Shown: piece after piece, positions 1,249 through 62,495 of the stretch
Layout: every line of letters starts with the position of its first letter
Position numbering within the stretch: position 1 is the stretch's first letter
From: Candidatus Magasanikiibacteriota bacterium
Lineage (GTDB): Bacteria; Patescibacteriota; Patescibacteriia; Magasanikbacterales; UBA922
Reading direction: 5' to 3'
NCBI GenBank assembly: GCA_021648085.1
Contig: JAKITS010000001.1
Location: forward strand, 746,759 to 810,758
DNA length: 64,000 nucleotides
The notes under the pieces: generated by a model
Seen by the model: only the letters and a program-made list of their open reading frames with translations
Database searches by the model: none
What the model was told of the DNA's origin: nothing
Position numbers and translations under genes: made by a program

Positions 1249-1372
1249 CACGTCATATTGAGCGGAACGGAGTGGAGTCGAAATATCTCGGGATTGTATC
1301 ATTAGAACTTTGAGTATTTTGTGTTTTAATGATCCTGAATCGAGATCCTTCGGCTTCGCTCAGGATGACGTG
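1249..1372. mobile_element. MITE-like element, family A (CACGTCATATTGAGCGGAACGRAGTGGAGTCGAAATATCTCG ... CGAGATCCTTCGGCTTCGCTCAGGATGACGTG)
   Basis: About 125 bp with imperfect terminal inverted repeats of roughly 35 bp. The same unit recurs at more than 20 loci in this window. Confidence 0.7.
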
Positions 1373-1417
1373 ATGGAAAACTCCCCTCAGGATGATGTGT
1401 GGGATTTTTGTCATTTT

Positions 1418-1556
1418 TAATTTGATTGAGGGTCCCAGCCTGCCGACGGGCAGGCAGGATTTATATTACAATGTAATTATTATAGTTTATATATTTTTAT
1501 ATAAAATAATTATATTTTGTAGACTCTGGATTCACAGTCAAGCTAGGAATGACAAA
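1418..1556. mobile_element. MITE-like element, family B copy with an inserted GC hairpin (CCTGCCGACGGGCAGGCAGG)
   Basis: Direct repeat of 1108-1240, about 320 bp away. It carries an extra GCCGGCAGGC-type palindrome. Confidence 0.6.
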
Positions 1557-1587
1557 TATTAATTTAGTATAAATGAACCTTTATTTT

Positions 1588-4500
1588 TTAAATCCCCAAT
1601 TCACCAACCCATGAGAATGTTTCCTCAATGTTCTTCAAAATAACTTGGAACACACTTTCTTTTTGTTTTGGTGTTAGAATTGTGAATGTTCTTGATTTTG
1701 TTATGTTTCCAGTTGAGTCTTTGCTTTCTACTTGAAACTGGTAAACAGAGCCTGGTTCAAAATTTGTAAGAACCAGAACGTGCCTCTTTACATAATTTGG
1801 ATCTAGTGCTGTCTTACTTTTCAATGTGTCTGAAGTGCTAAATCCTTTTTGAAAATAAATCTGACTTGTTGACGGCTCATTTGTAGCCCAAGAAATCACA
1901 GCTTGAATTCTTTGATCATCTCCAGGCAGCATTGCAGAATCTGTTTGAACTTGTGAAATTATAGGTGCCATGTCTATATCAGTAGTAGAATATGTTGGGA
2001 TTACCTTTGAGACTATGTTTCCGGAAACATCTTTTCCAGAAAGTTCTATTTGATACACAATTCCCCCTTCAAAATCTCTGATCTCAATTTCGTGAATTGT
2101 TGTCATAGCTTTATCATCTTTTGAAACTGCCTCATCAAATGACAACACACCATCTCTATATGGAGTATATGTAACTTTTGAGTCTGCAATTACACTTGTC
2201 ACCCAATAAAAATTGGCTTGATCCATAGCGGAAGAGTCTATTCTATAATTTGTAATTTCCACCTCTTCTTGTCTTGTGATAAATATAAAATTTGGTGATT
2301 TTGAAAGAGGGCTTACTGGAGTTTTACTTTGCACTTGATAATTATAGGATGTTCCTGGACTTAGCTCATTTACTACCACAGTATGTTCTGTCACATCTGC
2401 ATCTGAATTACCTACAACCTGGCTATATTTTCCTGTATTCCCAAAAATATTAGATTGGGCAAAAGCTACCAAAGAATTAGAGTTTTTATCTGTTGTCCAC
2501 GAAATACGCGCAGAAGTTGCCCCCGCATCAACCACTGGCTGACCTCCGATAAGTGGTGACGGAATTAATCGCGCCAATTCTCGCAATGATTTATATTGTG
2601 TATTTACCTCCCTTTCAAGTGCTGCTACAGAAACTTGTGTTGCCATTTTTGCAATCAACTCACGAGTTCTTTGCAATAGGTTTGCAAATGAACTTTCAGA
2701 CGTGCCTTCATCGTCTATTTCTGCCAAATCTTCTTCCGACAAAAATGTTTTTGTCTCAAAAGTAAAATCTTCCGAATTTGTTCTATTTCCACCTGCATCT
2801 AATGTCGTCACACGGTAATGATATGTTGTTCCAGCAGACAAATGAAGTATTGTGACTTCATGATTAGTAACATTTGCAACAGAACCAGCAATACTTCCAT
2901 AAGAATCAGAAAGTCCAAACTCCACAATACTATCTCCAACCTCATCACTTTCCCAAGTCATTACAGCAGAATCCATTGTTATGTCTTTTACATTTATATT
3001 AAATATTGATGGTGGGATTGAATCTCCTCCTTGAATAATTATCATTCCTCCAGAAGATGCATTTGCCTGACCTGTCGCTTCTGCTGCTGCTTCTCTAATT
3101 TCTACAGCTGACTCTTCTGATAACAACTCCAAAGTTGTAAATGTATATTCTGTAGAAGTTGAAGTATTACCAGAACCATCTGTTGAAACAACAATATAGA
3201 AATAAGGTGTATCTACAGTAAGCCCTGTCAAAGTAACAGCATGATTTGTATTTAAATTGGAATTTTCTATTGTAATAGTATCGTACACTCCAGTTGCAAC
3301 CCCATATTGAACTTGCGATGTTGCCCCTTCGTTTGATGTCCAAGTAATTACAGCATCGTCGTCTGTGACGCCAATTGCGGTAATCGCTGTTAAAACTGGC
3401 GCGACCGTATCATTTGATGTAGTAAAAGAATAATAACTTCCGCCATTATTATCTACAGCAACACCAGAAACAACATAATAGTAATATGTTGTAGCCGCGA
3501 CAAGCCCAGTCACATTTGCGGTATGTTCTGTCACACTTTCAGAAACTGTAAGCTCTGTTGCCTCAGAAAGATCTGAATTTGTTGAATAAAATATAGAAGT
3601 ATTCGATGATTGATCTGTATTCCAAGTAATTGTAGCATTTGTGTTTAAAACTGTTTTAGTTGTTACAGCCGAGATAGAAGGTCCATCTACTGTTGTAAAT
3701 GAATAGCCATCTCCACCATTTACCTCTGTTCCTATATTTCCAGAAGGGTCTACCGATTTTGCTTGATAATAATAGGTAGTATTTGGAGTAAGCCCTGTTA
3801 TTGCAACCGAATGCTGATCTCCACTTGCAGAAACGCTATCCACCATAGTTGAAACACCCACAGAAGTTGTAAATGTAGCAGGAGTTGTAGAATAAGTAAT
3901 TGTAGAATCAGAAAGCTCATCTGTATCCCAAACTATAACTACAGATTGAGTGGACAGTGTGGAGGTTGTCACATTTGTAATGGTTGGAGATGTAGCATCA
4001 GAACCACCCTGCCCATTTGGTTGGTCGGACAAAACAGAAGAGAAAAAAGAAGCATTTCCATCATCATCTACTGTATTTGCTTTATAATAATATTCCGATG
4101 AGGAAACCAAACTACGATTAAAATAATAGTTTGTCGTTCTTGTGGTCACCTCTGTCAAAATAGAAAAGTCTGTACCATTTGTCGATTGCCACACTTGATA
4201 CCTATTAAATGGTTCAGATACAGTTCTCCATGCAAAGAAATGTTGATATTCATCTGTACTTACATTTGAAAGATCTCTCAAAATAATTAGCTCTGGTGTC
4301 TCGGCAGTTGATGCACTTGCAGAATATGTGTTTTGATAAGCATCTTTAAATCTCACATATCCTGTGTCTGGGTCTGTCACAAATGATAATGATGATGTTG
4401 TGTTGTAGTCAGTGTAGCTACTACAATCTGAATAATCGCTTTGGATAGTCACGCACATTTGCAAACCAGCGCTATCATCTGATCCTGAAAGTGTTACCAA

Positions 4501-7500
4501 TGCTGGTGTGGATGTAGCCTCCACATATATTGGAATAATACCTGGAGTTGGATCTTTTACATCCACAGTAAAGACAGTAGACGAGCTAAGTGCTGTATTA
4601 TTTGCACCTTCTCCATCGTTTATTGTCACGCGAATTGCAAATGTTGTGGAGTATGTCCCATCTATTTGAGCTTTTGAATTCCATGTTGGGGTATATGTTG
4701 TATAGTTGGTAGTTGTAACAGTTTTTGTAGATGTTGCATTTGCAGAAAGTCCGGTGGTAATTGGAGTCCAATTGTTTCCACTATCTGTAGAATAATGAAA
4801 AGACGGTGTAACACATTCAGCACAGTTTACACCACTTGATGCAGTGTCAGTATCACGAACAGAATATGCTATGTTTATATAACCAGTACTTGTAGCCTGT
4901 ACAGCAGTAATTGTGCTTTCAAAATTTGGAGCATCATTTACCACATATGTCATATTTAAATCTGAAAGTATTGGCACATTTATTCCATCGGAAGTTAAGA
5001 TAGCCTTATACTGAACCCACTGATCATTTACTCCATCTGTATTTGTGCTGTTTATTGTGTGTCCGCCAGCAGGAGTAGAATAATAATCTGCATCACTAGT
5101 TGGGCCCAACCAAGAAGTCCATGTTCCGGGAGAGCCACTAGAATCTGGTGCTGTACGAAGTTGAAACCTCACATTTGAACCTGTTGGTTTTGTCTCTATC
5201 CAAGACATATCACCCATTACATTTGCAGAGCTTCCAGTGTCATAAGCAGAAGATATTAGGCTTTGATTTGTGAGTGGATAGCTTTGGTGAACTATTGTGA
5301 TATCTTCTATTGTTGGTGTTGCGTCCACATCGCTTGATGTTAGAATAGCTTGGTATTGCACATACCTATTCGTATCCGATACACAAGTAGCGTCATCTGT
5401 GATGTCTGTGCCAGAACTTAGAGAAGTACATGTTCCCCACTCTCCTGCTCCGCTCATACCAGAATCATCAGATGTTCTGGCTTTTACTGTTAGAGTTGTA
5501 TTTGATGGGAGAGCACCATTCCAAGAAAGTGCGCCAAAAGAAACATTTGCAGTTGTATCTATTATTGAGGAGGTGAAAGTTCCTGAAGTTTTGTAATTTT
5601 GTACTTTTATTATATCTAAATAGCTAGTACTGTTTTTTGAATTGTACACATAAAGATAATTATCCAACACAAAGACATCTGAAAGAGTATTGTACGATCT
5701 ATTTGAAGCGTGAGTTATATTAGCAGGATCAGATATGTTTATTACAGCAAACTCTTTTGAACTTGATAAATAAGCGTAATCTCCAGAAACTGAAATATTT
5801 CTAACCACTACTCCAATATTTATAGAATCAGATAGTGTTGGTGCAGTAGAGCTAGAAACATCTACAACATATAATCCATTTACCCCACAAGCAAGGTAAG
5901 CATAATTTCCTATCACACTCAAATCATAAACATTACTTCCACAAGCAGTATATGAACCAACAATTGATGGTGCAGTAGAGCTAGAAACATCTATTATTTG
6001 AAGTCCTCCCGTATTATCATCTGCTACATATGCAATTGTGCCAGAAACCACAACAGCATACGCAAGACCTGGTGTATCTTGTGTCGCCAAAAGAGTTGGT
6101 GCAGTAGAGCTAGAAACATCTATTAAATGAAGCCCTGCAGAAAAATCTGCCACATATGCAATTGTGCCAGAGACAAAAATATCATAAGCATAATTAGTTG
6201 TATTATAAGTTCCCAAAATAACAGGTGCCGTAGAGCTAGAGACATCTACTATTTTAAGACCAGAACTTCTTGCAGCTACATATGCAATTGAACCAGAGAC
6301 AAAAACATTGTTTGTGCTATCTCCCATTGTTGCTGTAGTCCCCAAAACAACCGGTGAATTAGGATTAGAAATATCTACTATTTTCATCTTATTAAAAGTA
6401 CTTTGCACAACATATGCCAAGTCTCCAGAAACAAAAAGTTCTCCAGAATAATTATCTTCAAAATTAACACTTCCTGTTTTACTTAAAGATGTAAAACTAG
6501 ACACATCTAAAATACTTAAAGTACCATAAGAGGTACTTCCCAAATATACAATATCATTAAAAACATTTAAATATCTTATCGAATAAAAAGACATATTTCT
6601 TGCTATTACAATAGGATTGGTAGAGCTAGAAACATCAATTATTATTACACCTCCATCAGTACCACTATCTTCTGCAAGATAGACATTTGTACCAACCAAA
6701 TCTAAACTGTAAGAACTTCCTTCAACAACATCAAAAGTAGTCGAAAGATTAATATTAGTAGAACTGGCAATATCTACAATTTTTAAACCATTTGTATAAT
6801 CTGCCACATAAGCAATAGTATTAGAAACAACAACATCATAAGCCCTGGTCATAGCTAAACTATCTAAAACTGTTGGGTTTGTAGAGCTAGACACATCTAT
6901 AGTTCTAATATTATAATAATCTGCTAAATATGCAACTGTACCAGAAACAGTGACGGAGTAAGCTATACCAGAATCTAGATAAGTTCCAATAATATTGGGA
7001 GTAGTAGGGTTAGAAATATCTATTATCCTTAAGCCGCCAGTACTATCTGCAACATAAGCGATAGTACCAGAGACAAAAACATCTTGAGCACCAACAGTTG
7101 CAACACTACCGATAATAGAAGCTGTTGCGTAATTAGCTACATCTATAATAACTAAACCGTCTGTTCCAGCAGCCACATAAGCCAAAGTACCCACAAGTTC
7201 AACACCATACCCCTTATTTGTAAGTGTTATACTTTTCAAAATATTAGGATTATAAGGATCTGTCACATCTAATATTCTAAAATCTCCACTACCGTCTGCC
7301 AAATATGCGAGTGTGCCTGATACAAAAATATCATATGGACCTGAGACAGGAAAATATGTATTAGAAGACCTGTCGGATAAATCCGTAAAACTTATATCTG
7401 TTCCTAAATTTAAAGTATCATTAGACGCAGTGGTAGAAGAGTGAGTCCCACCATCAAAATCTGCGTTTGATGTTTGTGTGTTGTTTGTGTCTGCTAGACT

Positions 7501-7866
7501 TAGTGTAAGCTCTGTTCCTGTTGATATTGAACTAGAAGCAGAATCATAAAGTGTCCAACCTGTTTTGTTTGTTGGGTGTACTCCTGTTGCGGTAGTACTC
7601 GCTGCTGTCCATTCTGTCTGCACAAAATCATAAGTAGCAGCCCAAATTGGTGGTGCTTTGTCTACAAAATAAATAGTGGCTTGAATCATAACTACAAGAA
7701 AGAATACCCAAGAAACAAAAGCAACTCGCAAAGGGTGAAACTTCTTTGATATAAATATTTCTTTTAAGTTTGTCCAAAGATTTACATTGCCTTTAAAGAA
7801 GTTTGGTGTGAAAAAATGAAGGATAAACAAAGGAAAAAATACAATACTTTTCAAATAGTGCACCAA
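1588..7866 (-). CDS. giant surface protein (~2090 aa): N-terminal TM/signal anchor, Thr/Ser-rich region, multiple LVIVD beta-propeller repeats, Ig/FN3-like domains
   Basis: LVIVD-type repeats such as GTLAYLADGSGDFRILDVTDPYNPN, GTLAYVAAGTDGLVIIDVANYATA and GTIAYVADSTGGLRIIDISNPTTPN recur many times. The C-terminal half has FN3-like modules. The likely true start is TTG/GTG at 7866/7863, preceded by AGGA. The ORF-track extension to 8508 reads in frame through two family-A MITE copies and is an artefact. Confidence 0.7.
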   Translation of the reverse strand: MVHYLKSIVFFPLFILHFFTPNFFKGNVNLWTNLKEIFISKKFHPLRVAFVSWVFFLVVMIQATIYFVDKAPPIWAATYDFVQTEWTAASTTATGVHPTNKTGWTLYDSASSSISTGTELTLSLADTNNTQTSNADFDGGTHSSTTASNDTLNLGTDISFTDLSDRSSNTYFPVSGPYDIFVSGTLAYLADGSGDFRILDVTDPYNPNILKSITLTNKGYGVELVGTLAYVAAGTDGLVIIDVANYATASIIGSVATVGAQDVFVSGTIAYVADSTGGLRIIDISNPTTPNIIGTYLDSGIAYSVTVSGTVAYLADYYNIRTIDVSSSTNPTVLDSLAMTRAYDVVVSNTIAYVADYTNGLKIVDIASSTNINLSTTFDVVEGSSYSLDLVGTNVYLAEDSGTDGGVIIIDVSSSTNPIVIARNMSFYSIRYLNVFNDIVYLGSTSYGTLSILDVSSFTSLSKTGSVNFEDNYSGELFVSGDLAYVVQSTFNKMKIVDISNPNSPVVLGTTATMGDSTNNVFVSGSIAYVAARSSGLKIVDVSSSTAPVILGTYNTTNYAYDIFVSGTIAYVADFSAGLHLIDVSSSTAPTLLATQDTPGLAYAVVVSGTIAYVADDNTGGLQIIDVSSSTAPSIVGSYTACGSNVYDLSVIGNYAYLACGVNGLYVVDVSSSTAPTLSDSINIGVVVRNISVSGDYAYLSSSKEFAVINISDPANITHASNRSYNTLSDVFVLDNYLYVYNSKNSTSYLDIIKVQNYKTSGTFTSSIIDTTANVSFGALSWNGALPSNTTLTVKARTSDDSGMSGAGEWGTCTSLSSGTDITDDATCVSDTNRYVQYQAILTSSDVDATPTIEDITIVHQSYPLTNQSLISSAYDTGSSANVMGDMSWIETKPTGSNVRFQLRTAPDSSGSPGTWTSWLGPTSDADYYSTPAGGHTINSTNTDGVNDQWVQYKAILTSDGINVPILSDLNMTYVVNDAPNFESTITAVQATSTGYINIAYSVRDTDTASSGVNCAECVTPSFHYSTDSGNNWTPITTGLSANATSTKTVTTTNYTTYTPTWNSKAQIDGTYSTTFAIRVTINDGEGANNTALSSSTVFTVDVKDPTPGIIPIYVEATSTPALVTLSGSDDSAGLQMCVTIQSDYSDCSSYTDYNTTSSLSFVTDPDTGYVRFKDAYQNTYSASASTAETPELIILRDLSNVSTDEYQHFFAWRTVSEPFNRYQVWQSTNGTDFSILTEVTTRTTNYYFNRSLVSSSEYYYKANTVDDDGNASFFSSVLSDQPNGQGGSDATSPTITNVTTSTLSTQSVVIVWDTDELSDSTITYSTTPATFTTSVGVSTMVDSVSASGDQHSVAITGLTPNTTYYYQAKSVDPSGNIGTEVNGGDGYSFTTVDGPSISAVTTKTVLNTNATITWNTDQSSNTSIFYSTNSDLSEATELTVSESVTEHTANVTGLVAATTYYYYVVSGVAVDNNGGSYYSFTTSNDTVAPVLTAITAIGVTDDDAVITWTSNEGATSQVQYGVATGVYDTITIENSNLNTNHAVTLTGLTVDTPYFYIVVSTDGSGNTSTSTEYTFTTLELLSEESAVEIREAAAEATGQANASSGGMIIIQGGDSIPPSIFNINVKDITMDSAVMTWESDEVGDSIVEFGLSDSYGSIAGSVANVTNHEVTILHLSAGTTYHYRVTTLDAGGNRTNSEDFTFETKTFLSEEDLAEIDDEGTSESSFANLLQRTRELIAKMATQVSVAALEREVNTQYKSLRELARLIPSPLIGGQPVVDAGATSARISWTTDKNSNSLVAFAQSNIFGNTGKYSQVVGNSDADVTEHTVVVNELSPGTSYNYQVQSKTPVSPLSKSPNFIFITRQEEVEITNYRIDSSAMDQANFYWVTSVIADSKVTYTPYRDGVLSFDEAVSKDDKAMTTIHEIEIRDFEGGIVYQIELSGKDVSGNIVSKVIPTYSTTDIDMAPIISQVQTDSAMLPGDDQRIQAVISWATNEPSTSQIYFQKGFSTSDTLKSKTALDPNYVKRHVLVLTNFEPGSVYQFQVESKDSTGNITKSRTFTILTPKQKESVFQVILKNIEETFSWVGELGI

Positions 7867-8034
7867 TACACTTGTCCTAACTCCTAGAACTTCTTGGTTT
7901 GGTCTCACCGCATATTTCTTCGCCAAATTTCTGAGTTTCTTTTTTCTGTCCTTTTTTGAAACTATTTCATGATTTTGAGAACCATCCCATCTTCGAACAA
8001 TCCCCTCTTTAATCACGTCATCCTGAGCGAAGTC

Positions 8035-8157
8035 GAAGGATCTCGCTTTTGTATCACAAGACTTTGAATATTCACAATTCTGGTTATTCTTTTTCGAGAT
8101 ATTTCGACTTCGTTTCACTACGCTCAATATGACGTGTTTTTTACCGCCATTCTTTGA
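8035..8157. mobile_element. MITE family A copy (reverse orientation)
   Basis: CACGTCATCCTGAGCGAAGTCGAAGGATCTCG ... CGAGATATTTCGACTTCGTTTCACTACGCTCAATATGACGTG. Together with 8234-8376 it forms a tandem pair. Confidence 0.7.
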
Positions 8158-8233
8158 TTTAAAAATGTTCAAGCGATTCCTAACTTCGTTCGAAATGACA
8201 GAAATAAAACTTACTTTTGTATCACCATTCTTC

Positions 8234-8376
8234 CCGTCATCCTGAGCGGAATGGAACGAAGCGGAATGCAATCGAACGGATCTCGCTTTTGTATCACAAG
8301 ACTTTGAATATTCACAATTCTGGTTATTCTTTTTCGAGATATTTCGACTTCGTTTCACTACGCTCAATATGACGTG
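8234..8376. mobile_element. MITE family A copy (reverse orientation, tandem to 8035-8157)
   Basis: The internal 95 bp are identical to the copy at 8035-8157. Confidence 0.7.
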
Positions 8377-8770
8377 TTTTTTATTACTTCTTTTTTTCTT
8401 TGTTTTTGAAAGAAAATTTATATCATTCCTTTTTCTTTTTCCAAAACCAAAAGAACCACCAAGTTTCCTTAGGTATTTTTGTACTTTTTTATTTATTTTA
8501 TGAAGCACAATTCTTTTAGTTTATTTCCAAATATAAACAAATCGCCTCTGTTTAGAGCCATGTAAATATTATACCATTTTTTGAGCCTTTTTTTAAGACG
8601 CTTTCACGATAGTTATCCACATTTTTTACAATAAAAAATAACTCTTTTAAAAAGTTATTTTTTATTTTTATTTTAAACCCGTTTCTTATCACCAACAACT
8701 CATTTTTCTATTATGTTTAAACATTTTTATCTGTTTAATTCACTATTTTTTGTTTTGTGATACTTTCACG

Positions 8771-8900
8771 AGATCCTTCGGCTTCGCTCAGGATGATGTG
8801 TGAGTATTTTATGCTTCGATCAGGATAACGTGTTTTTTTATTCACATCATATTGAGTGGAGTGAAACGGAGTCGAAATATCTCGTGTTTGTTTCACTATT
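8771..8900. repeat. family A MITE fragments (R half-site followed by L half-site)
   Basis: CGAGATCCTTCGGCTTCGCTCAGGATGATGTG ... CACATCATATTGAGTGGAGTGAAACGGAGTCGAAATATCTCG. Confidence 0.5.
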
Positions 8901-11228: not shown

Positions 11229-12026
11229 AAAATTATTATTTTTTATAACGCTTAAAATGAAAACGGAATTAAATTGTAAAAAGAACTATTTAAAAATTTA
11301 AGAAAAAACTTTTTTTGTTGCCTTAACTCAAGGTTAAGATGTTTGAGAAAAAATGTTTATAATTAAATTTTAAGGATTACGAACCGAAATGAAATGAATT
11401 GTGAAGCATGAAAACTAACTTTGAATTGTATTTAGACTCACTACATAATTGTTTGTAGCCAATTTTATAAAACATTGGCTAAAATGAATTATGTAGTGAG
11501 CCTACTCTAAAAATCTAAGGAAACTAACTTATACAACCAAACTTACGCTACGGAACTACGAGGTAGAAATAAAAAAACAGCAACTGAAACTAACAGGGCT
11601 GCCGTAAGATAATAGTAAACTACAGTAAAATTTTCTGAGCTAATTAGCTCTTGTTTATTTTGCATATGGATTTTATTTTTATTTTTGTTTTTTTGCCGTA
11701 ATTACGGACTTGTTGTCTACTCTTGGTTAAGAGTTAATTTTGAAACTTCTTTATTTTTGAAGTTCCTTTTAGAACCTGTTCATAATATTTTTTTGAGTCA
11801 ATTTTATTATATTTTGAGCGAAAATTTTATAAAAAAGTGAAGGATAATGGTATTATATTAAACTTTTTTATAGGATTTGTAGCCAAAATAAAATGAATTG
11901 AACGAAAAAGGATTATGAACAGGTTCTATGTAGACATTGTTCGACCTTTATAAATACAGTATATCACAAAATTGACCCTTTGTCAATGATGTCGTACAAT
12001 ATAATAAAGTCCCCTAACAAAGATAT

Positions 12027-14020: not shown

Positions 14021-14211
14021 ACGTTTAATTTGTCAGTTTTATGCTTTGGTGAACCAAATTAGGGAACCCGTGCCGGCAGGCAAATATCCCTGTGCAGTAT
14101 CACTATTTATAATCTATTCCACTTTCACAAAATCCCTCTTTGACGCTCGGGATGACATGTATTTTTTGTATCATGTTATCTACATCATGTATTTTGTATT
14201 TGTTTGTCATA

Positions 14212-15946: not shown

Positions 15947-16045
15947 AATTTGTCATTCTCAGCTTGACTGGGAATCCAGAAGTTTAAATAACCAGAATGT
16001 TGACACAAATCCTGGATCCTCAATCAAGTTGAGGATGACAATTAA
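15947..16045. mobile_element. short family-B-related MITE variant (TTTGTCATTCTCAGCTTGACTGGGAATCCAGAAG ... CCTGGATCCTCAATCAAGTTGAGGATGACAAT)
   Basis: Its termini match the reverse complement of the family B ends. Confidence 0.45.
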
Positions 16046-18693: not shown

Positions 18694-19002
18694 ATATAAT
18701 AGGCCTAGTCTCTATTTACGTAAAAATTATACAACATTTTTAACTATAAGTCAAGACTATGTGTAAGAACTAAAATATTATACATATTAGTTTTGGTAGT
18801 TTTCTAAAAACTTTGAATGTTTTTTGTTTTTGTAATACTTTCACGAGATCCTTCGGCTTCGCTCAGGATGACGTGTGAGTATTTTGCCATTCTCAGCTTG
18901 ACTGGGGCAAAGGTTTATATCATTGTTCATTGACTAAAGACTCCTGGATTCCCGGTCAAGCCGGGAATGACAATATGAACAAGAACTTTATAAACTTTTA
19001 TT

Positions 19003-20789: not shown

Positions 20790-20935
20790 TTGCGTCATGT
20801 TGAGCGGAACGAAGTGGAGTCGAAATATCTCGGGATTGTATCATTAGAACTTTGAATATTTTATGTTTTGGTTAAATTGCCACGAGATCCATTCGACTAC
20901 ATTCCGCTTTGCTCCATTTCGCTCAGGATGACGTG
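20790..20935. mobile_element. MITE family A copy, preceded by a family-B terminus at 20748-20785
   Basis: TGCGTCATGTTGAGCGGAACGAAGTGGAGTCGAAATATCTCG ... CGCTCAGGATGACGTG. Confidence 0.65.
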
Positions 20936-23758: not shown

Positions 23759-23781
23759 GTTAAAAAAAATTATAAAATTTA

Positions 23782-23912
23782 TGTCATATTGAGCGGAACG
23801 AAGTGGAGTCGAAATATCTCGATGCTGTATCATTAGAACTTTGAATATTTAAAACCTTATTATACACTCCCGAGATCCTTCGGCTTCGCTCAGGATGACG
23901 TGAATATTTTTT
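23782..23912. mobile_element. MITE family A copy
   Basis: TGTCATATTGAGCGGAACGAAGTGGAGTCGAAATATCTCG ... CGAGATCCTTCGGCTTCGCTCAGGATGACGTG. Confidence 0.7.
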
Positions 23913-25094: not shown

Positions 25095-25199
25095 GCTTTG
25101 TCTGCTTGATAAATCATTTATTTTGTTCGCTTGGATTAGAAAGAAAAAATAACAAAACAAAAAAAGAACTTTCTGAAAAGTTCTTTTTTTGTTTTCAAC

Positions 25200-25440
25200 A
25201 CGTCATATTGAGCGGAGTGAAACGGAGTTGAAAATCAAAGTTCACGTCATATTGAGCGGAACGGAGTGGAGTCGAAATATCTCGATGCTGTATTATTAGA
25301 ACTTTGAATATTTTATGTTTTGGTAATACTGTCCCGAGATCCATTCGACTCCATTCCGCTTTGCTCCATTTCGCTCAGGATGACGTTATGAAAGGTGATA
25401 CTATCTCGAGATCCTTCGGCTTCGCTCAGGATGGCGTTAT
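25200..25440. mobile_element. cluster of family A MITE copies: an L half-site, a full copy and an extra R half-site
   Basis: It contains repeated CACGTCATATTGAGCGG ... and ... CGCTCAGGATGGCGTTATGG segments. Confidence 0.65.
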
Positions 25441-26517: not shown

Positions 26518-26544
26518 AATTTTAATAAAAACAAAATTTTTATG

Positions 26545-26875
26545 TCATCCTGAGCGACAGCCGAAGGATCTCGGGAAAGCATCACAAGGTTTTAAATATT
26601 CAAAGTTTTAATGTTCTTGAATCGAGATATTTCGACTCCACTTCGTTCCGCTCAATATGACGTGACTGAATTTTGTCATTCTCAGCGGGAAAACATGATT
26701 AAAATACACGTCATCCTGAGCGAAGTCGAAGGATCTCGGGAAAGCATCACAAGGTTTTAAATATTCAAAGTTTTAATGTTCTTGAATCGAGATATTTCGA
26801 CTCCACTTCGTTCCGCTCAATATGACGTGACTTAAAAAACGTTATTCTAAATTCACTTCGCTCAATATGACATAA
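26545..26875. mobile_element. two tandem family A MITE copies (reverse orientation) separated by a family-B terminus fragment
   Basis: The sequence GTCATCCTGAGCGA ... CCGCTCAATATGACGTGACT is repeated twice, and TTTTGTCATTCTCAGCGGG lies between the copies. Confidence 0.7.
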
Positions 26876-27464: not shown

Positions 27465-27520
27465 CTCCCTTCCTTTTTTGGATATTGTACATAATTTAAT
27501 TTATAAAAATTATTTTTAAT

Positions 27521-28455: not shown

Positions 28456-28733
28456 AAGTGGAGTGGAGTTGAAAATCAAAGCTCACGTCATATTGAGCAA
28501 AACGCAGTGGAGTCGAAATATCTCGATGCTGTATTATTAGAACTTTGAATATTTAAAACCTTATTATACACTCCCGAGATCCTTCGACTTCGCTCAGGAT
28601 GACGTGATGGAAAGGTGATACTATCCCGAGATCCTTCGGCTTCGCTCAGGATGACGTGATGGAAAGGTGATGCTATCCCGAGATCCTTCGGCTTCGCTCA
28701 GGATGACGTGATTTTTTAATCACACTATATTGA
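28456..28733. mobile_element. family A MITE copy followed by a tandem array (2.7 x 52 bp) of the R half-site unit CCCGAGATCCTTCGGCTTCGCTCAGGATGACGTGATGGAAAGGTGATRCTAT
   Basis: The tandem units lie at 28573-28624, 28625-28676 and 28677-28713. Similar two-unit arrays occur at 39105-39205, 25395-25440 and 49730-49790. Confidence 0.65.
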
Positions 28734-29329: not shown

Positions 29330-29344
29330 AATAATATTTTATGT

Positions 29345-29545
29345 TCTAATGTTTTTGAATCGAGATCCGTTCGACTCCACTTCGTTTCGCTCAATATGAC
29401 GTGAGTAAAAATACGTCATATTGAGTGGAGTGAAACGGAGTCGAAATATCTCGTGTTTACATCATTAGAACTATGAATATTTTATATTCTTGTGATATTG
29501 CCCCGAGATCCTTCAGCTTCGCTCAAGATGACGTGTTCTATTCCT
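29345..29545. mobile_element. family A MITE copies (reverse-orientation copy plus L and R halves)
   Basis: CGAGATCCGTTCGACTCCACTTCGTTTCGCTCAATATGACGTG ... CGTCATATTGAGTGGAGTGAAACGGAGTCGAAATATCTCG ... CCCGAGATCCTTCAGCTTCGCTCAAGATGACGTG. Confidence 0.65.
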
Positions 29546-32877: not shown

Positions 32878-33100
32878 GGTAAAAATCCCACACGCCATCC
32901 TGAGCGGAATTTTCCACACGTCATCCTGAGCGGAGTCGAAGGATCTCGAAATAAAAACACTAGAACGCAAAATATTCAAAGTTCTAGTGATGCGGCATCG
33001 AGATATTTCGACTCCACTGCGTTCCGCTCAATATGACGTGAGCTTTGATTTTTAACTCCACTGCGTTCCGCTCAATATGACGTGAACTTTTATTTTTAAC
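32878..33100. mobile_element. family A MITE copies (R-type half in reverse, then a full copy with duplicated L halves)
   Basis: CACGCCATCCTGAGCGGAATTTTCCACACGTCATCCTGAGCGGAGTCGAAGGATCTCG ... CGAGATATTTCGACTCCACTGCGTTCCGCTCAATATGACGTG, repeated twice. Confidence 0.65.
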
Positions 33101-33174
33101 TCCACGAGGTGAAACTTATAATATGATCTATGCTAATTTTTTAACTCCGCTTTGTTTTATTCAAAATAATATAA

Positions 33175-35722: not shown

Positions 35723-35774
35723 AACTTAAAATAAAAAACTACCGTTTTAACGGTAGTTTTTTTATATTTTATGT

Positions 35775-36115
35775 TTTGGTGATTCTATTGCGAGATCCAT
35801 TCGACTTCATTCCATTTCATTCCATTTCACTCCATTTCGCTCAGGATGACGTGATTTAACATACGTCATATTGAGCGGAGTGAAACGGAGTCGAAATATC
35901 TCGATTCAAAATCATTAGAATTATGAATATTTAAAACCTTGTGATATTGTCCCGAGATCCTTCGACTTCGCTCAGGATGACGTATGTGTGTTTTCCGCTC
36001 AGGATGACGTTTTTTTGTTCACATTATATTGAGCGGAGTGAACTTAGGATGACGCGTGTATTTTACGTCATCTTGAGCGGAACGAAGTGGAGTCGAATGG
36101 ATCTCCGTGCAATAT
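35775..36115. mobile_element. compound cluster of family A MITE copies and half-sites (at least three nested or tandem copies)
   Basis: It contains repeated CGAGATCCATTCGACTTCATTCC ... GCTCAGGATGACGTG, CGTCATATTGAGCGGAGTGAAACGGAGTCGAAATATCTCG and CCCGAGATCCTTCGACTTCGCTCAGGATGACG segments. Confidence 0.6.
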
Positions 36116-36204
36116 AACCAGAATATAAATAATTAAATTAAAACATTAGTCCGTCTTTCTTTTTGTTTTTCTGTCTAATGTTATTTGCATAACGTATCAT
36201 GTCC

Positions 36205-37302: not shown

Positions 37303-37435
37303 AGTTCACGTCATATTGAGCGGAACGCAGTGGAGTCGAAATATCTCGATGCTGTATCATTAGAACTTTGAATATTGATATTCTGGTGATACTTTCCCGA
37401 GATCCTTCGGCTTCGCTCAGGATGACGTGATTGTT
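37303..37435. mobile_element. MITE family A copy
   Basis: CACGTCATATTGAGCGGAACGCAGTGGAGTCGAAATATCTCG ... CCCGAGATCCTTCGGCTTCGCTCAGGATGACGTG. Confidence 0.7.
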
Positions 37436-37956: not shown

Positions 37957-38805
37957 TCCCCTCCTAATATTGTAAAGCCAGAAAATTCTGGCGACAAAGA
38001 TCTTCCTTGATCTCTTTTCTTTAAATTCTACTATTAAAAGCTAAAGAAAAAAGCAGTTTTTTAAGGAAAAACTGCTAAAACCCATACTACTGAATAAACC
38101 CTTTTAACTAGTTAGAAGCTTGTTTACATCGCGTACGCCGACATAACTTCTAAAAAGTAGAGTAAAGCCAGAAACTTTATTTTTCGATAGGTAAAGTTTG
38201 TAAACCTATTCTTTGCCAATCCCAATCGTCTAAGTTTTCGCAGCCTGATGTCGACCAACAAGAATACTTAACTCCATGGTTTTGGTTTTTTGTCTTGTTT
38301 TTAGTCCGAATATGTAAATGACTGCAAACAAGATCCCTTCGAAATGACTTTTGGTTTTCTCTCCAAGGCGTCAAAGACCTCAGTATTTGCCTATTAGGCT
38401 TTGTGTTATAGCGACCATACTGTGGACACTCAAGCCAATCGCCTGTTCACCAATTTCTCCTTTTCGTTCGGCGATTCGGATTTTTTGAAATCATGATAAT
38501 AACTATACCCCATTTTTAAACTTTTGTCAAGTCTTTTGACCCAAAAACCTAAAATTCTTCCTCAAATTTGACTTATTTTAGCGAAAAACTTAAAATATAC
38601 CATTTTAAACAAAACGAAACTTATTATATAATACTAAATAAAATAAAACGGAATCAAAATGACATTTTTTTGTTCACGTCATATTGAATGGAACGCCTGC
38701 CTGCCGGCAGGCAGGAAGTAGAGTCGAAATAACATGACTTAACATACGTTATCCTAAGCAGAGCAAAGAGGAGTCGAACGGATCTCGTATTTATTTCACT
38801 ATTTA

Positions 38806-39090
38806 TTAATCCCCAAACAAATCTCTCATTTCTGGATTTAATTTTTTAATTAAATTTAGTTTTTTAGCACGCACCCAACCTTTCAATTGTTTTTCACGTT
38901 GAATAGCATATAATGAACTATCGTGTTCTTCAAAATATAAAAGTTAATTTATATTATATTTTGCAGTAAAACTATTTTTGTCTTTTTTATATTTATGTTC
39001 TATTGCTCTTCGTTCTAGTTTATTTGTAATACCAATATAATATACTGTTTTGCGAGAGTTGGACATTATGTAAACATAAAATTTTTTCAT
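38806..39090 (-). pseudogene. GIY-YIG nuclease family (UPF0213-like) gene interrupted by a single in-frame TAA at 38944-38946
   Basis: The minus-strand translation is MKKFYVYIMSNSRKTVYYIGITNKLERRAIEHKYKKDKNSFTAKYNIN*LLYFEEHDSSLYAIQREKQLKGWVRAKKLNLIKKLNPEMRDLFGD. It shows GIY ... YIG and the conserved R/E/K pattern of small GIY-YIG proteins in a single frame. Confidence 0.6.
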
Positions 39091-39206
39091 AATTATATTC
39101 TGGTGATTTTATCCCGAGATCCTTCGGCTTCGCTCAGGATGACGTAACGGAAAGGTGATACTTTCCCGAGATCCTTCGGCTTCGCTCAGGATGACGTGTG
39201 GAAAAT

Positions 39207-49280: not shown

Positions 49281-49934
49281 AATTCACAGAAAATATATAA
49301 ATTCGGCCCAACAAGCTAAACCGCGAAAAACTCTTCCACGGACGAGGACTACCCTCTTTGGGTTATTTTCTGCGTACTAATAAAAAACATTTGTAAACTT
49401 AGAGTATATTGTATTCTTGTAATTCTATCTCGAGACCCTTCGGCTTCGCTCAGGATGACATACTAGAAAAACACTTTTTATCTCAGTAAAATAGCTGACT
49501 GAGCTAAAATAGTTTTCTAGCTATACTCTTACTATATTTTAACATAAAATGAAAGATTTTTCACACACAAACTGTGGATAAGTTTTATACTTTTTTTCTT
49601 CCTTAGGAAATATTATTTAAAAACGCTTTTTTATAGTAGAATAAGCTATAAAAATAAAATTAGAAAAATATATTTTTTGGTGTTTTTTGTATATTATGCT
49701 TCGCTCCGTTCGGGGGATGACGTGATGGAAAGGTGATGCTGCCCCGAGATCCTTCGGCTTCGCTCAGGATGACGTGAATAGTTTCTGTCTCATGCTATAT
49801 GTATCGTATCTCATAATTATTTTTATTTTTAATTTAAAAACTTGACATATAAAATTAAAGGTTCTAAAATTTAAATACCGCTCATTTACAATATTTTACA
49901 CAGATGTTTTGTGTAAAAAAAGGAGGAATTCAAA

Positions 49935-50357: not shown

Positions 50358-50545
50358 TTTATTCACGTCATATTGAGCGGAACGAAGTGGAGTCGAAATA
50401 TCTCGTGTTTGTTTCACTATTTTATGTTTTGGTGATACTTTCGCGAGATCCTTCGGCTTCGCTCAGGATGACATATTTTTATTTACGTCATATTGAGCGG
50501 AACGAAGTGGAGTCGAAATATCTCGTGTCTATTTCACTACTCCCG
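50358..50545. mobile_element. family A MITE full copy plus an adjacent L half-site
   Basis: TCACGTCATATTGAGCGGAACGAAGTGGAGTCGAAATATCTCGTGTTTGTTTCACTATTTTATGTTTTGGTGATACTTTCGCGAGATCCTTCGGCTTCGCTCAGGATGACAT, then a repeated L half. Confidence 0.7.
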
Positions 50546-54109: not shown

Positions 54110-54350
54110 AGTGGAGTCGAAAATCAAAGCTCACGTCATATTGAGCGGAGTGAAACGGAGTCGAAATATCTCGATGTTGTATCATTAGAACTTTGAATAT
54201 TTTGCGTTCTAGTGTTTTTATCTCGAGATCCTTCGACTTCGCTCAGGATGACATGAATGTTATGCTTCGCTCCGTTCGGGGGATAATATATTTTTTATTC
54301 ACGTCATATTGAGCGGAACGAAGTGGAGTCGAAATATCTCGTGTTTGTTT
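54110..54350. mobile_element. family A MITE copies (two, with fragments), preceded by a family C fragment at 54003-54075
   Basis: CACGTCATATTGAGCGGAGTGAAACGGAGTCGAAATATCTCG ... CGAGATCCTTCGACTTCGCTCAGGATGACATG, then TCACGTCATATTGAGCGGAACGAAGTGGAGTCGAAATATCTCG. Confidence 0.65.
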
Positions 54351-54411
54351 CACTATTTTTCTCTTTTTTATACTAATCCAAGCGAAATAATTCATCAAAC
54401 GAAATTATATA

Positions 54412-56033: not shown

Positions 56034-56399
56034 AAAGAAAAATTTTACTGATATATTTATAAGTTAACTTTTTTCTTGAAGTTGTAGTCAAAATTTAATA
56101 ATATCAATAGAAATGATATTTAATATTAACTTTTTCATTATAACATAAATACAAAAAGCAAAAAATAGCCCAAATAAGTATATAAATTGAATTAAGGATA
56201 TTTCAATAAATCATCCCCATATCAAGACCCAGGGTATTTTTTTGTATTTAATATTATGGATTAAATAAATAATTCCCAAAATAGAATTTTAGAATATTTT
56301 TGTAATAATTATTGCAATATCGAAGCAAGCTTTGATGTATTAATATGAATAAAAGAAACCCCATCAAGATAAGGATTATAAAAATCTTATATATTATCC

Positions 56400-56500
56400 T
56401 AAACGAAGCCGAAGGATCTTGGGAATATATCACCTTTCCATAACGTCATCCTGAGCGAAGTCGAAGGATCTCGGGACAGTATCACAAGAATGTAAAATAT
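56400..56500. mobile_element. family A MITE copy (reverse orientation), followed by a family B copy at 56534-56665
   Basis: CGAAGCCGAAGGATCTTGGGAATATATCACCTTTCCATAACGTCATCCTGAGCGAAGTCGAAGGATCTCGGGACAG. Confidence 0.6.
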
Positions 56501-56823
56501 TCATAATTCTGGTAATACAAACCCTAAACTTCCTTTGTCATTCCCGACCTAGATCGGGAATTCAGAGTATATAAACTAAAATTGTGTTTATATAAAAATA
56601 TATAAACTATAATAAATTATACTATTATTTAAACCTTGGATCCCCAATCAAATTAAAAATAACAAAAGAAAAAACATTAAGACATTATGCAGATAATATG
56701 ATAGAAAAATAGCCAAAATAAGTAGATAAATTGAATTAACGGATTGACAAAAGTGCTTTTTTGTAGTAATACTAAAAAGTTCACTCAACCAATCTCGAAA
56801 GAGATTACACCACAAGGTATAAA

Positions 56824-57555: not shown

Positions 57556-58753
57556 TTGTGTTTTTTTATTTTGGTGATATAAATTGTAGAATCTTTCGAC
57601 TTCATTCCGCTTTACTCCATTTTATTTAAGCTAGTGTAATTTTTCCACAAAGTTAAACCCAACACATACCATATCCTGGGTAGAATACCAACCTTCCTAC
57701 AGACAGAGCTTCGGCTATTGCTCAAGATGTTATAGTTTTTAATCCGGTTATACTGAGCAAAAGAAAAGAAAACAAAGCTTGAAGGATTTTGTGAAATAAA
57801 AAAGAACTCTGAATATTTTACACTCTTCTTCTTAAACCTACTTAATCGTTTGTCTAACTTACTTATTACCAAAACAGTTTGGTCAATCAAAAAATAGAGA
57901 AACAGGCGTTAAAAGGGAATATAATGGGCTTTGACGGCTTTTTTATCTTCAACAGTTTCGTATGAAACTAACTTTTTATTTTTTAAAATAGTTAACAGTT
58001 TATGTGGATAACTTTATAGAAATAAAAAAGTTTCTAAAGCCTTTAAAACAACTAAACTAAGCGTTTTTTGTGCGAAGACTAAAAATTAGTCTTAGAAAAA
58101 ATAAAAGTTATTAACATGTTATCAACAATACAAAATTATCGCTAAACAATGCTTTAATCTGATAAAATACTCATTATTTTGGATATACAAATTTTCTACT
58201 CCTTATTTTTTATATTTTTCCGCCATTATTAGTATTTTTTTGTCTACTATCTTCATCGCCGTCCTTTTTACTGTCCCCAACATTTTTTCTATTTATCATT
58301 TTTAGTACTTTTTTTGTGATCCTCAGCCTGATTTAGGATCTAAAAAATTATATTACTATTTATTATTTTTTACTAAGGTTAAGGATAGTAGATAAAGTAT
58401 TAAGACTAAAAACTCCTGAATTCCTGGTCAAACTAAGAATAATAAAGGCGATAAAGATTTTAAGCCTTACGAACTTTCTAATTTTCCTTTGCTTATCATT
58501 CCCGATCGGGGTCGGGAATGACAAAAGGGATTTAAGGTTTAGACTCTGGATTCTCGATTAGCGCAGTAATAACAAAAAAATACGGTTAATAATAACAAAA
58601 AAGATATATATAATTTTTATACATTATTTTTAAAAAATAAATCATTTTTAGGATGGAATCCCAGCGTATTTTTTTAAGAATTATTATTATATTAAGACAA
58701 TCCTCGGTGTATATTATTGTAAGTAAAAAACCCGCAAGTATTTGCGGGTTTAC

Positions 58754-61132: not shown

Positions 61133-61356
61133 TAAAACAAACACGAGATATTTCAATTTTTTTTATTTTGTTCAATATGACGTAAGTTATTGTTGTCATC
61201 CTCAGCTCGACTAAAAATCCAGGGTCTACAAAAATGACAGAAGAGAAAGGTGTTTTTAACTCCAAATTCCTGATTAGCTCGAGAATAATAATATAGAATT
61301 AATATAAAAAAAACGATAGTTTAAATGACTATCGTTTTTTTATTTTGTGTAATTGT

Positions 61357-62109
61357 TTATTTTGTAAACAAAAGTGAATTTAATATGCCTTTGAGTATTG
61401 GCTCCATATCTTTTCCGCCTTCATCAAATCCAAATCTAAACATATATTCCTGACTATTAAAATCTTTTACAACATTACTTCCAATTTGGATTTTTCCATC
61501 TGTATTTTGCTCATTTACAAGAATTTTTTCTATTGAATTTACAACAATCTTTCCAGTAGAATTCATTGACAAATCATAAGTTTTATCATAGAAAAATGGT
61601 CCATATCCGTCTGGATTTATATCTATATTAAAATAGGTATTTTCCGTTCCAGAAATATCAATAAGTGTAATTTGATACCAATTTTTTGCACTTGAATTTC
61701 CAGAATATATTACTTTTACAGCATCTTTTACTATTGCAAAACCCTCTGGATAAGAAAAAGAAAATCCATAACTATCATTTGTGTAAACTTTCCAATTACT
61801 TGTATTAATAGCCAAATACTTCGTCTCTAGCACATCTTTTTTTATTACATTTAGTGTTTTTGATGTTTCAGCTACTTCTGGAATAACACCAACATCTTCT
61901 TTATTTTTATTCAATTCTTTTATTTGCGTTTGTAGTTCTTGAATTTGTGTTTGAAAAGCTTTTTCTGTATTTTTTGTACTAAGTTGTTGCAAAAAATACA
62001 TTCCAATTCCTACAATTAAAGCTGTAAGTAAAATAGACAAAACTAAAATCCAAATATTTTTTGGATTGTTGTACGATTGATTTATTTCTGTTTGTATTTC
62101 TTCATTCAT
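61357..62109 (-). CDS. hypothetical membrane-anchored protein (N-terminal TM helix, coiled coil, beta-rich C-terminal domain)
   Basis: The TM helix is IWILVLSILLTALIVGIGMYFL. The coiled coil is TEKAFQTQIQELQTQIKELNKNKE. No family assignment. Confidence 0.4.
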   Translation of the reverse strand: MNEEIQTEINQSYNNPKNIWILVLSILLTALIVGIGMYFLQQLSTKNTEKAFQTQIQELQTQIKELNKNKEDVGVIPEVAETSKTLNVIKKDVLETKYLAINTSNWKVYTNDSYGFSFSYPEGFAIVKDAVKVIYSGNSSAKNWYQITLIDISGTENTYFNIDINPDGYGPFFYDKTYDLSMNSTGKIVVNSIEKILVNEQNTDGKIQIGSNVVKDFNSQEYMFRFGFDEGGKDMEPILKGILNSLLFTK

Positions 62110-62372
62110 ATTTTTGTATTAATTATAAAATAGTATAACAAATTCTATTATTTTATAAAAATACTTCGCAAAAATACGAAGTGTTTTTATATCCTCAAAT
62201 CGACCAGCATGATCTTGCGAAAACTGCTTTACAAGGAGAGAGAGAGAGTTCAATTAAGAACAATTTGTAACGCTATTTGCGCGCGATCTCTCCAACAAAA
62301 AATGCTGAATTACTGGCCGATTTGAAAATATAAATGATAGAGTTTTTACTGAACAGAGCAAAATATTTTTTG

Positions 62373-62495
62373 TTCACGTCATATTGAGCGTAGTGAAACG
62401 GAGTCGAAATATCTCGTGTTTGTTTCACTATTTTTTGTTTTTGTGATACTTTCGCGAGATCCTTCGACTTCGCTCAGGATGGCGTGTGTATTTTT
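62373..62495. mobile_element. MITE family A copy
   Basis: TCACGTCATATTGAGCGTAGTGAAACGGAGTCGAAATATCTCGTGTTTGTTTCACTATTTTTTGTTTTTGTGATACTTTCGCGAGATCCTTCGACTTCGCTCAGGATGGCGTG. Confidence 0.7.

Follow-up and report, generated by a model that had tools for sequence, protein, structure and literature searches.

A CGTC-tagged hairpin repeat family and an Ssn-like GIY-YIG nuclease cassette in a Magasanikbacteria genome

The 64,000-nt stretch of DNA analysed here (the window; positions 746,759 to 810,758 of the forward strand of contig JAKITS010000001.1, assembly GCA_021648085.1, Candidatus Magasanikiibacteriota bacterium) was found to carry a repeat, family A, in which a left and a right arm, each a hairpin unit with an unpaired tag, are opposed around a spacer with the tags pointing outward. 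The copies of family A are probably gene-less derivatives of a cassette of approximately 0.4-0.5 kb that encodes a 94-aa GIY-YIG nuclease of the Ssn type, and would belong to the class of CGTC-tagged repetitive extragenic palindromes (REPs) and Ssn-related hairpins. The observations behind this reading are the anatomy of the arms, the covariation of their stems across bacteria, the association of the units with the nuclease gene, and the relationship by deletion between the repeat and the cassette.

The nuclease cassette and its gene-less derivatives

When a profile search was seeded with a GIY-YIG gene located between two inverted right-arm-type units in a Verrucomicrobia metagenome-assembled genome (MAG; locus L050), a match was obtained in the window at 38806-39090 on the minus strand (jackhmmer E=1.4e-18). 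The translation of this open reading frame (ORF), MKKFYVYIMSNSRKTVYYIGITNKLERRAIEHKYKKDKNSFTAKYNIN*LLYFEEHDSSLYAIQREKQLKGWVRAKKLNLIKKLNPEMRDLFGD, comprises 94 codons, which is the length of SsnA of Neisseria meningitidis, and is interrupted by a single in-frame TAA at 38944-38946. The ORF matched the whole of the Pfam GIY-YIG domain (PF01541, E=8.9e-15, positions 1-78 of 78), and its two halves matched profile positions 1-47 and 49-92, respectively. In the alignment all of the family-invariant residues (Y, G, R, H, E and N) were kept, and homologues have K, E, D or N at the position of the stop. Right-arm units lie just 5' of the ORF and left-arm-type units just 3' of it (38675-38801), with tags outward. 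By its sequence, the ORF is likely to represent a stand-alone nuclease of the Ssn type. In the original prediction no transposase gene had been recognised in the window. DDE and HUH transposases were indeed not found in the 64 kb by Pfam search, but the ORF bracketed by family A arms had been overlooked. A crude GIY-YIG regular expression gave nothing in the window and one match among 120 loci; the interrupted ORF was recovered by the profile search. No other credible GIY-YIG remnant was found in the window; a second decayed candidate at 56596-56709 (E=0.43) was dropped because it was unsupported by tblastn.

The relationship between repeat and cassette was seen in the 112-bp copy at 50364, which aligns to cassette positions 38671-38694, 38715-38730 and 38782-38803, jumps 38804-39092 and continues through 39093-39143. 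The skipped segment compares with an ORF at 38806-39090, and the breakpoints share TTAT. Identity was 20 of 22 nt over the 3' flank of the ORF and 45 of 51 nt over its 5' flank together with the right arm. In the 112-bp copies, the spacer corresponds to the 3' flank of the ORF joined to its 5' flank. The 123-bp variants retain a remnant that aligns across the start-codon region (57/67 identical).

The same architecture was found around homologous genes. The nearest intact homologue (P0121; 94 aa, 77% identity, from another Magasanikbacteria MAG) carries a unit of the short-loop type on its 5' side and one of the long-loop type on its 3' side, the order also seen in the window cassette; it lies between SpoU and an XerC-like gene, both of which are present in the window without a cassette between them. 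The homologue genes at L131, L132 and L050 are also flanked by units, and flanking on both sides was seen at L123, L131 and L050. At 80 metagenome loci encoding homologues of 46-58% identity, tag-outward units consisting of GTC and a hairpin were sought within 250 bp of the gene. On the upstream side such a unit was present in 60 of 78 loci and on the downstream side in 62 of 76, while 48 of 74 loci had one on each side; the median tag-to-tag span was 397 bp. The density of units was 5.2 per kb next to the gene compared to 0.70 per kb beyond 400 bp. Two classes of unit occur at these loci, one with a 5-bp stem and GA loop and the other with a classical 8-bp stem and a loop of 4-5 nt, and one homologue (L207, 49% identity) was flanked by a strict Neisseria-type NTS.

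A strongly conserved stretch was also observed between SpoU and the XerC-like gene (window ~11540-11790; L123 1196-1470). It includes a hydrophobic-looking small ORF of ~40 aa, which is called in L123 and related contigs, and the window lacks the Ssn cassette that the L123 relative has beside it.

As a family, the repeat was largely as predicted. Blastn and an nhmmer profile built from 13 clean full copies recovered every predicted copy, the one at 61130 being only a weak degenerate match (E=0.004). There are 16 full and approximately 20 partial copies, which cover 3,552 bp or 5.5% of the window by profile scan, slightly below the 6-7% first estimated. All of them are intergenic, in 18-19 of approximately 38 gene gaps, a density that is unusual as had been said. 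The consensus arms were found, at three or fewer mismatches, 12 times (left) and 22 times (right), with 0 expected from 100 shuffles. The 16 complete dimers span 112-145 bp, and the remainder are half-sites (one arm with its own adjoining spacer half), shortened arms and tandem reiterations; the tandem, nested and half-site arrays described earlier were recovered, among them an array of period 52 (x2.7, 28572-28712; unit of spacer half and right arm) and one of period 44 (x2.2, 33011-33105; unit of truncated left arm and linker). The termini are CACGTCAT.../...ATGACGTG and the middle is AT-rich and non-coding. Among the 13 clean full copies the median pairwise identity was 78%, consistent with the single family of more than 70% identity that had been proposed, and mean identity was 91.7% in the arms and 61.3% in the spacers. 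A literature search with the arm sequence returned unrelated primer matches only. The copies and related features of the window are as follows.

1249..1372, plus: full dimer of left unit, spacer and right unit
8014..8136, minus: full dimer
8235..8376, minus: full dimer, right-unit loop expanded
8742..8898, plus: half-sites, spacer and right unit at 8742-8800, left unit and spacer at 8843-8898
18805..18875, plus: spacer and right unit, solo
20791..20935, plus: full dimer with expanded right-unit loop; a classical TGTCATTCCCGAT unit lies just upstream (20750-20779)
23780..23902, plus: full dimer
25199..25437, plus: array in which a truncated left unit (25199-25233) is followed by a full dimer whose right loop is expanded (25243-25386) and by an extra spacer and right unit (25395-25437)
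26542..26829, minus: tandem pair of full dimers (26542-26664 and 26707-26829), 96% identical to each other
28484..28710, plus: full dimer followed by two more repeats of spacer half and right unit, period 52
29333..29535, no single strand: left unit and spacer (29333-29403, minus) back-to-back with full dimer (29413-29535, plus)
32917..33105, minus: full dimer (32917-33040) and period-44 array of truncated left units (33011-33105)
35764..36131, plus: array in which a right unit whose loop is expanded by CATTCCATTT repeats (35764-35853) is followed by a full dimer (35863-35984) and by a left unit with spacer (36065-36131)
37307..37429, plus: full dimer, the top-scoring copy; single long hairpin, -51.9 kcal/mol, z = -6.8
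38675..39198, plus: gene-bearing cassette of left-type hairpin units, GIY-YIG ORF (minus strand) and right-type units
38806..39090, minus: GIY-YIG ORF, 94 codons, in-frame TAA at 38944-38946
38675..38801, plus: cassette left end, where the mini-palindrome CCTGCCTGCCGGCAGGCAGG (38695-38714) splits a left-type unit, after which come another, degenerate unit and the left half of the spacer, TATTTATTTCACTATTT
39091..39198, plus: cassette right end, with the ORF 5' flank and right units at 39115-39146 and 39167-39198, each after the spacer half GGTGAT(A/T)(C/T)TTTCC
49396..49776, plus: two solo units of spacer and right unit (49396-49460 and 49733-49776)
50364..50539, plus: 112-bp dimer (50364-50475), the form nearest the cassette, then left unit and spacer (50485-50539)
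54132..54355, plus: full dimer (54132-54255), then left unit and spacer (54300-54355)
56396..56524, minus: right-unit fragment, spacer and right unit; a classical TGTCATTCCCGA unit adjoins at 56537
62375..62486, plus: 112-bp dimer
1207-1240 (minus), 18945-18972 (minus), 20750-20779 (minus), 56537-56565 (plus) and 58495-58522 (minus), also 16012-16039 (minus) and 14128-14156 (minus): TGTC classical units

The window is bacterial, with 33% G+C and three tRNAs; its GC skew is negative throughout and its genes are mostly on the minus strand. The window NrdD has 100% identity to a protein of a Candidatus Magasanikbacteria MAG (CPR/Patescibacteria) on a contig of 984 kb. Of the 16 full copies without a gene, 11 are in the plus orientation, as are 10 of the 12 solo right arms, and by gene gap there were 13 plus, 3 minus and 2 mixed. 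With this skew and this gene direction, the cleavable right unit would be on the presumed lagging-strand template; an effect of the replication strand on orientation cannot be separated from that of transcription direction. Copies are placed alike upstream of genes, downstream of them and between divergent genes.

Several neighbouring genes were recorded. Six paralogous genes for type IV secretion system pilin-like proteins (PF18895) stand in a row at 25843-31902, with a solute-binding protein gene among them, and the gaps within this row are mostly filled with family A arrays. Two giant ORFs of 2,306 and 3,357 aa are also bordered by copies. The former, the mechanically called ORF 1588-8508 (minus strand), contains the two copies at 8014-8376, through which the frame stays open and translates as ...HVILSVVKRSRNISKK...RSFDFAQDD...; this is reminiscent of in-frame RPE insertions, and the true start of the ORF is probably downstream of both copies.

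Anatomy and distribution of the hairpin units

Read tag-first, the right arm is CA-CGTC-ATCCT-GAGCGAAGCCGA-AGGAT-CTCG and the left arm is CA-CGTC-ATATT-GAGCGGAACGAAGTGGAGTCGA-AATAT-CTCG. Each arm consists of an unpaired CGTC tag, a 5-bp Watson-Crick stem starting with AT, a conserved GA...GA loop and a C after the stem. The arrangements CGTC|ATCCT...AGGAT|C and CGTC|ATATT...AATAT|C, with GTC immediately 5' and C immediately 3' of the palindrome, were present in all window units. The self-complementary stems differ between the arms (ATATT/AATAT in the left, ATCCT/AGGAT in the right), which creates mismatches in the long left-right hairpin while the hairpin of each unit is preserved. The ends had been described as imperfect inverted repeats of each other. 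The elements are bounded by inverted repeats, but each end is in itself a self-folding tagged hairpin unit whose stem covaries across phyla. In the window, GTCA was followed by such a hairpin at 61 of 308 sites compared to 1-11% for control tetramers.

As for the conserved loop, the best reading is a structure in which tandem G.A pairs precede a short 2-bp GC stem capped by a GNA triloop (in the right arm, GC-GAA-GC), and ATCCTGAGCGAAGCCGAAGGAT is proposed to form such a G.A/GNA hairpin. The left arm contains in addition a GGA/GGA internal loop and a second mini-hairpin, the stem of which switches between AC/GT and GT/AC among copies, amounting to four compensating transitions. Tandem G.A mismatches in the Y-GA-R context and C-GNA-G triloops are what we take to be hallmarks of unusually stable DNA hairpins. 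Whole elements were found to form long hairpins, for which the z-scores ranged from -3.2 to -8.6. In 12 of the 13 full copies the left-to-right strand folded more stably than its complement, on average by 5.2 kcal/mol with RNA parameters, which indicates an asymmetry of G.U/G.T pairs, and the more stable strand is mostly antisense to the adjoining genes. Single arms were no more stable than shuffles under nearest-neighbour DNA parameters; these omit the G.A and GNA motifs, so that the result counts neither for nor against the unit hairpin.

The unit is pan-bacterial and not specific to this genome. The right-arm 23-mer CCTTCGRCTTCGCTCAGGATGAC was found unchanged in at least 120 loci or genomes of many phyla. 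The matches listed include Flavobacteriia, Sphingobacteriia, Verrucomicrobiota, Acidobacteriota, Chloroflexota, Saccharimonadales, Gammaproteobacteria, Clostridia and Rickettsiales, and among them the unit was often accompanied by an inverted partner at a distance of 50-60 nt. These partner units (n=52) were unconstrained by the 23-mer search and were used to examine covariation of the stem. At least four of the five stem pairs were formed in 38 of the 52 compared to no more than one in shifted controls, with more than 20 stem types represented and a tag of TGTC in 31 and CGTC in 4. Across all loci examined, 238 distinct units with a 5-bp stem and a GA...GA loop were collected. The inner bases closed the apical stem in 201 of the 238 (shuffled mean 50, maximum 69), the GA steps were in the 5'-Y-GA-R-3' context on both sides (TGAG/CGAA in 153, CGAG/CGAG in 32, TGAA/TGAA in 23), and C followed the stem in 218. 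The 23-mer was also found in six stretches of five viral contigs (L220-L225, IMG/VR), which is rare but above chance, and 16-mer left-arm matches in viral contigs were within the chance expectation by our own estimate. With such numbers, a phage vector for family A is not indicated.

A relative of the window (contigs L121/L122) has an NrdD 90% identical and is syntenic with window ~19.9-28.4 kb, the shared genes being ~77-85% identical in DNA. L121 carries family A copies in the same intergenic regions as the window, some complete and some decayed differently, and the arms of a full copy there were essentially identical to the window consensus. A recent burst had been suggested for family A. 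The essentially identical arms and the shared intergenic copies argue against a very recent burst, as does a spacer identity of only 61%. In the gap between NrdD and NrdG, diverged units occupy the same place in both genomes, with no contrast between presence and absence of family A.

Two further observations concern this region. Downstream of NrdD (21437-23557) a separate conserved small ORF at 21065-21268 (minus strand) contains pairs of cysteines together with the glycyl-radical motif TRVMGY. In L121/L122 its DNA sequence is 88.7% identical, and the L122 product matches Pfam NRDD; the anaerobic ribonucleotide reductase appears to be split into proteins of 706 aa and ~56-67 aa. At ~8115-8260, L121 contains an element of ~150 bp with near-perfect inverted ends (AAATCCTCCTACAAAATAATT...), which is cleanly absent at the orthologous window site (~21060). 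Here the two sequences truly differ by the presence or absence of a small element, one other than family A.

Other small repeats were seen beside the family A units. A second tagged-hairpin family, classical and NTS/dRS3-like, has the form TGTC-ATTCCCGA-N4-6-TCGGGAAT, and several of its units directly adjoin family A left ends as copied composites. The sole strict match in the window to the published SRM pattern, HGTCWYN(0-2)YYVSBRHN(0-5)WNVSBRGN(0-2)RNCYNB (PMC11893778), is TGTCATTCCCGGCTTGACCGGGAATCCAG at 18945-18972, ending at 18972 on the minus strand. An AT-rich repeat, TATAGTTTATATATTTTTATATAAA..., accompanies the TGTC units at 1170-1200, 1470-1500 and 56570-56620, and probably represents a further family of small repeats. 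A mini-palindrome rich in GC, CCTGCCTGCCG(R)CGGCAGGCAGG, was seen at 1437-1460 and again at 38695-38714, inside the left unit of the cassette, and a near-identical hairpin fills the loop of a tagged flanking unit on an unrelated metagenome contig (L194).

Mode of spread and alternative explanations

We infer that family A spread by nuclease-triggered copying. The Magasanikbacteria enzyme, produced from the window copy before it acquired the nonsense codon or from an intact copy elsewhere in the genome, would recognise the family A arms. Where it nicks single-stranded DNA, either at the replication fork or on DNA entering the cell, repair would then proceed by copying from other copies, which would spread, homogenise and tandemly reiterate the ends. 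Such copy-repair would give rise to conserved mosaic arms beside drifting spacers, to reiterated ends and to composite copies. The ORF may have been lost from most copies by deletion between short TTAT repeats, and dimers of 112-124 bp and half-sites would persist because, under this proposal, only the arms are needed in cis.

Several points weigh against this reading. GIY-YIG nucleases are not known to carry out strand transfer, only cleavage. The arms are inverted, with one cleavable site per strand, so that excision in the manner of IS200 is not obvious. The interrupted ORF is the only ssn copy in the window, and its in-frame TAA would keep the enzyme from acting if the genome has no further copy. 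Neither the left nor the right family A unit matched the SRM pattern, which was matched at 7 of the 80 homologue loci, leaving 73 without a match. Identical Ssn proteins were always found in the same gene neighbourhood. When the SpoU-XerC gap of the window was aligned to L123, where the cassette is intact, there was no clean empty site, and no clean pair of filled and empty sites was recovered for family A. The intergenic copies shared with L121 fit old, vertically inherited and decaying copies as well as ongoing mobility.

It is possible, though doubtful, that the cassette is a pan-bacterial mobile element resembling an insertion sequence (IS), with a single-stranded-DNA nuclease as its sole protein and family A as its non-autonomous offspring, comparable to transposable elements of the miniature inverted-repeat kind (MITEs). 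If so, it would constitute a class of mobile DNA without DDE, HUH, serine or tyrosine recombinase chemistry, which spreads by nick-triggered copying and has expanded to ~5% of a reduced genome of the Candidate Phyla Radiation (CPR).

The same pairing of Ssn nuclease and hairpin could instead serve the host, the units being domesticated marks and not selfish copies, and the nuclease cutting marked single-stranded DNA, for example incoming DNA, and so tuning recombination near particular genes, as has been proposed for Neisseria NTS. In N. meningitidis, DNA flanked by NTS transforms less well in the presence of SsnA, and NTS cluster near surface-protein genes (PMC11893778). In the window, copies cluster around the six pilin-like paralogues and the two giant proteins, arms are conserved between genomes while spacers drift, and identical Ssn proteins keep a fixed locus, all of which would suit such a role. 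The window ssn copy is inactivated, however, and truncated tandem ends resemble by-products more than sites that were designed, as do the half-sites and nested copies. We consider domestication unlikely.

A primary role at the RNA level, with the copies acting as terminators, attenuators, mRNA stabilisers or a small-RNA family and the nuclease link being secondary, is improbable. The long hairpins of whole elements, the greater stability of one strand, the orientation bias by gene gap and the T-runs that follow some copies are compatible with it. On the other hand, the more stable strand is mostly antisense to neighbouring genes, and copies lie indifferently upstream, downstream and between divergent genes. 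The tandem G.A (Y-GA-R) and C-GNA-G triloops would point to DNA hairpins. A structured RNA gene family had been named as a result that would speak against an inserted element; no Rfam match to the elements was obtained at the gathering score or at E<5, the only matches at the gathering score being the three tRNAs, and sub-threshold matches of the elements were to plant and animal miRNA models far below their cut-offs. Moreover, SsnA does not bind RNA (PMC11893778).

The element had first been described as MITE-like, and a classical MITE would be a DDE-type IS with an internal deletion, on the terminal inverted repeats of which a transposase encoded at another place in the genome acts in trans. 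The copies are indeed small, non-coding, intergenic and densely packed, with inverted-repeat ends and an AT-rich middle, a larger gene-bearing relative shares their ends, and the window is 64 kb of a contig of ~984 kb, which leaves room for such an IS. No target-site duplication was found, however, at 17 full or near-full copies; TTTTTTRTT before left ends and the AATCAAAGCT junctions were considered as duplications and rejected, being parts of larger copied composites. In addition, the window contains no DDE transposase, each arm is a self-folding tagged unit with compensatory changes within its own stem, the larger relative that shares these ends has a gene for a GIY-YIG nuclease and not a transposase, and the identical arm sequence occurs in many phyla, unlike IS-specific terminal repeats. 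A classical MITE is therefore very improbable. Also very improbable are REPIN-like doublets mobilised by a RAYT (an HUH Y1 transposase) encoded elsewhere, which share the architecture of two inverted tagged hairpins around a spacer, with decaying singletons and no duplication (PMC3733652), because the tag is CGTC and not GTAG, no transposase was tied to CGTC repeats by Di Nocera et al. (PMC3733652), no Y1 transposase was present among the window ORFs, and the gene bracketed by units, here and at 48 of 74 other loci, is GIY-YIG.

Comparison with known systems

A catalogue of CGTC-tagged palindromes, with no enzyme attached to them, appeared in 2013 (Di Nocera et al. 2013, PMC3733652), and in 2025 Ssn nucleases were reported to cut beside one subclass of them (Chenal et al. 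2025, PMC11893778). CGTC-tagged REPs have an unpaired CGTC/TGTC (or CCTC) tag, a stem of 8-9 bp starting with AT, a loop of 4-5 nt and a short tail, CCA. They are intergenic and mostly inverted dimers, often heterodimers with conserved structured spacers, and include Neisseria dRS3/NTS and Rickettsia RPE-4/-6; the class "apparently lacks a dedicated transposase", and according to the authors bulged or short-stem members would escape their search (PMC3733652). Family A resembles these repeats in its unpaired tag, AT-start stem, short tail, inverted heterodimers, structured spacers and intergenic location. It differs in having a 5-bp stem with non-canonical pairs and the tail CTC, and in its association with an enzyme, none having been found there (PMC3733652). 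The family A helix has only five Watson-Crick pairs; if the 2-bp GC stem is included along with the tandem G.A pairs, it has nine tiers and a 3-nt loop.

SsnA, a 94-aa GIY-YIG protein, was shown to bind the NTS hairpin of Neisseria, CGTCATTCCCGCGMAVGCGGGAATCYRG, in single-stranded form only. Binding requires the C that follows the palindrome, and cutting requires the three bases that precede it; the nick is placed a few bases to the 5' side of the tag and only in that strand. The gene ssnA is commonly flanked in the order NTS-ssnA-NTS, and an IS-like element was only raised as an idea (PMC11893778). The window system is similar in its 94-aa single-domain GIY-YIG protein, a gene bracketed by inverted hairpins, many gene-less intergenic copies, a (C/T)GTC tag before the hairpin, a stem starting with AT and a C after the stem. 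In contrast to the 8-9-bp stem and 4-5-nt loop of the SRM, the family A unit has a 5-bp Watson-Crick stem and a structured GA...GA loop of 12 or 22 nt. The host is a member of the CPR, the copies are mostly fixed heterodimers of ~112-124 bp with a spacer derived from the gene flanks, and the local gene carries a stop codon.

Likenesses to other systems are more partial. REPIN-RAYT systems (Bertels & Rainey 2011, PMC3116915) also comprise inverted tagged-hairpin doublets that fold as one, singleton decay products, a flanked gene and no target duplication, but their tag is GTAG and their HUH Y1 transposase cleaves and rejoins, as against CGTC and GIY-YIG in family A. With IS-derived bacterial MITEs, family A shares short non-coding copies that have the ends of a longer gene-bearing element and outnumber it, but it lacks target-site duplications, its ends are self-folding and the gene is not a known transposase. 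The "peel and paste" elements IS200/IS605 likewise have sub-terminal hairpins recognised in single-stranded DNA and cleavage beside the hairpin; both hairpins are on the same strand and the enzyme is HUH, whereas family A units are inverted, with one cleavable site per strand. Family A does not appear to be a classical MITE, a REPIN-RAYT system or a known RNA family, and is best filed as a new structural variant, in a CPR genome, of the known CGTC-REP and Ssn-related hairpin system.

What is new relative to these systems is, first, a parent-offspring pair in which a 112-bp repeat corresponds to a nuclease cassette minus its ORF, the kind of evidence that lies behind the relationship between MITEs and ISs. 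Second, a structurally distinct hairpin class (5-bp stem, tandem G.A and GNA mini-hairpin) flanks most members of this putative Ssn clade. The published pattern misses these GA-class hairpins, and the spread of the Ssn system has thus probably been underestimated. Such hairpins occur here at high density in a small CPR genome (~1-Mb contig), from a group thought to be streamlined and dependent on DNA uptake, and they would offer new pairs of enzyme and site for single-stranded-DNA tools.

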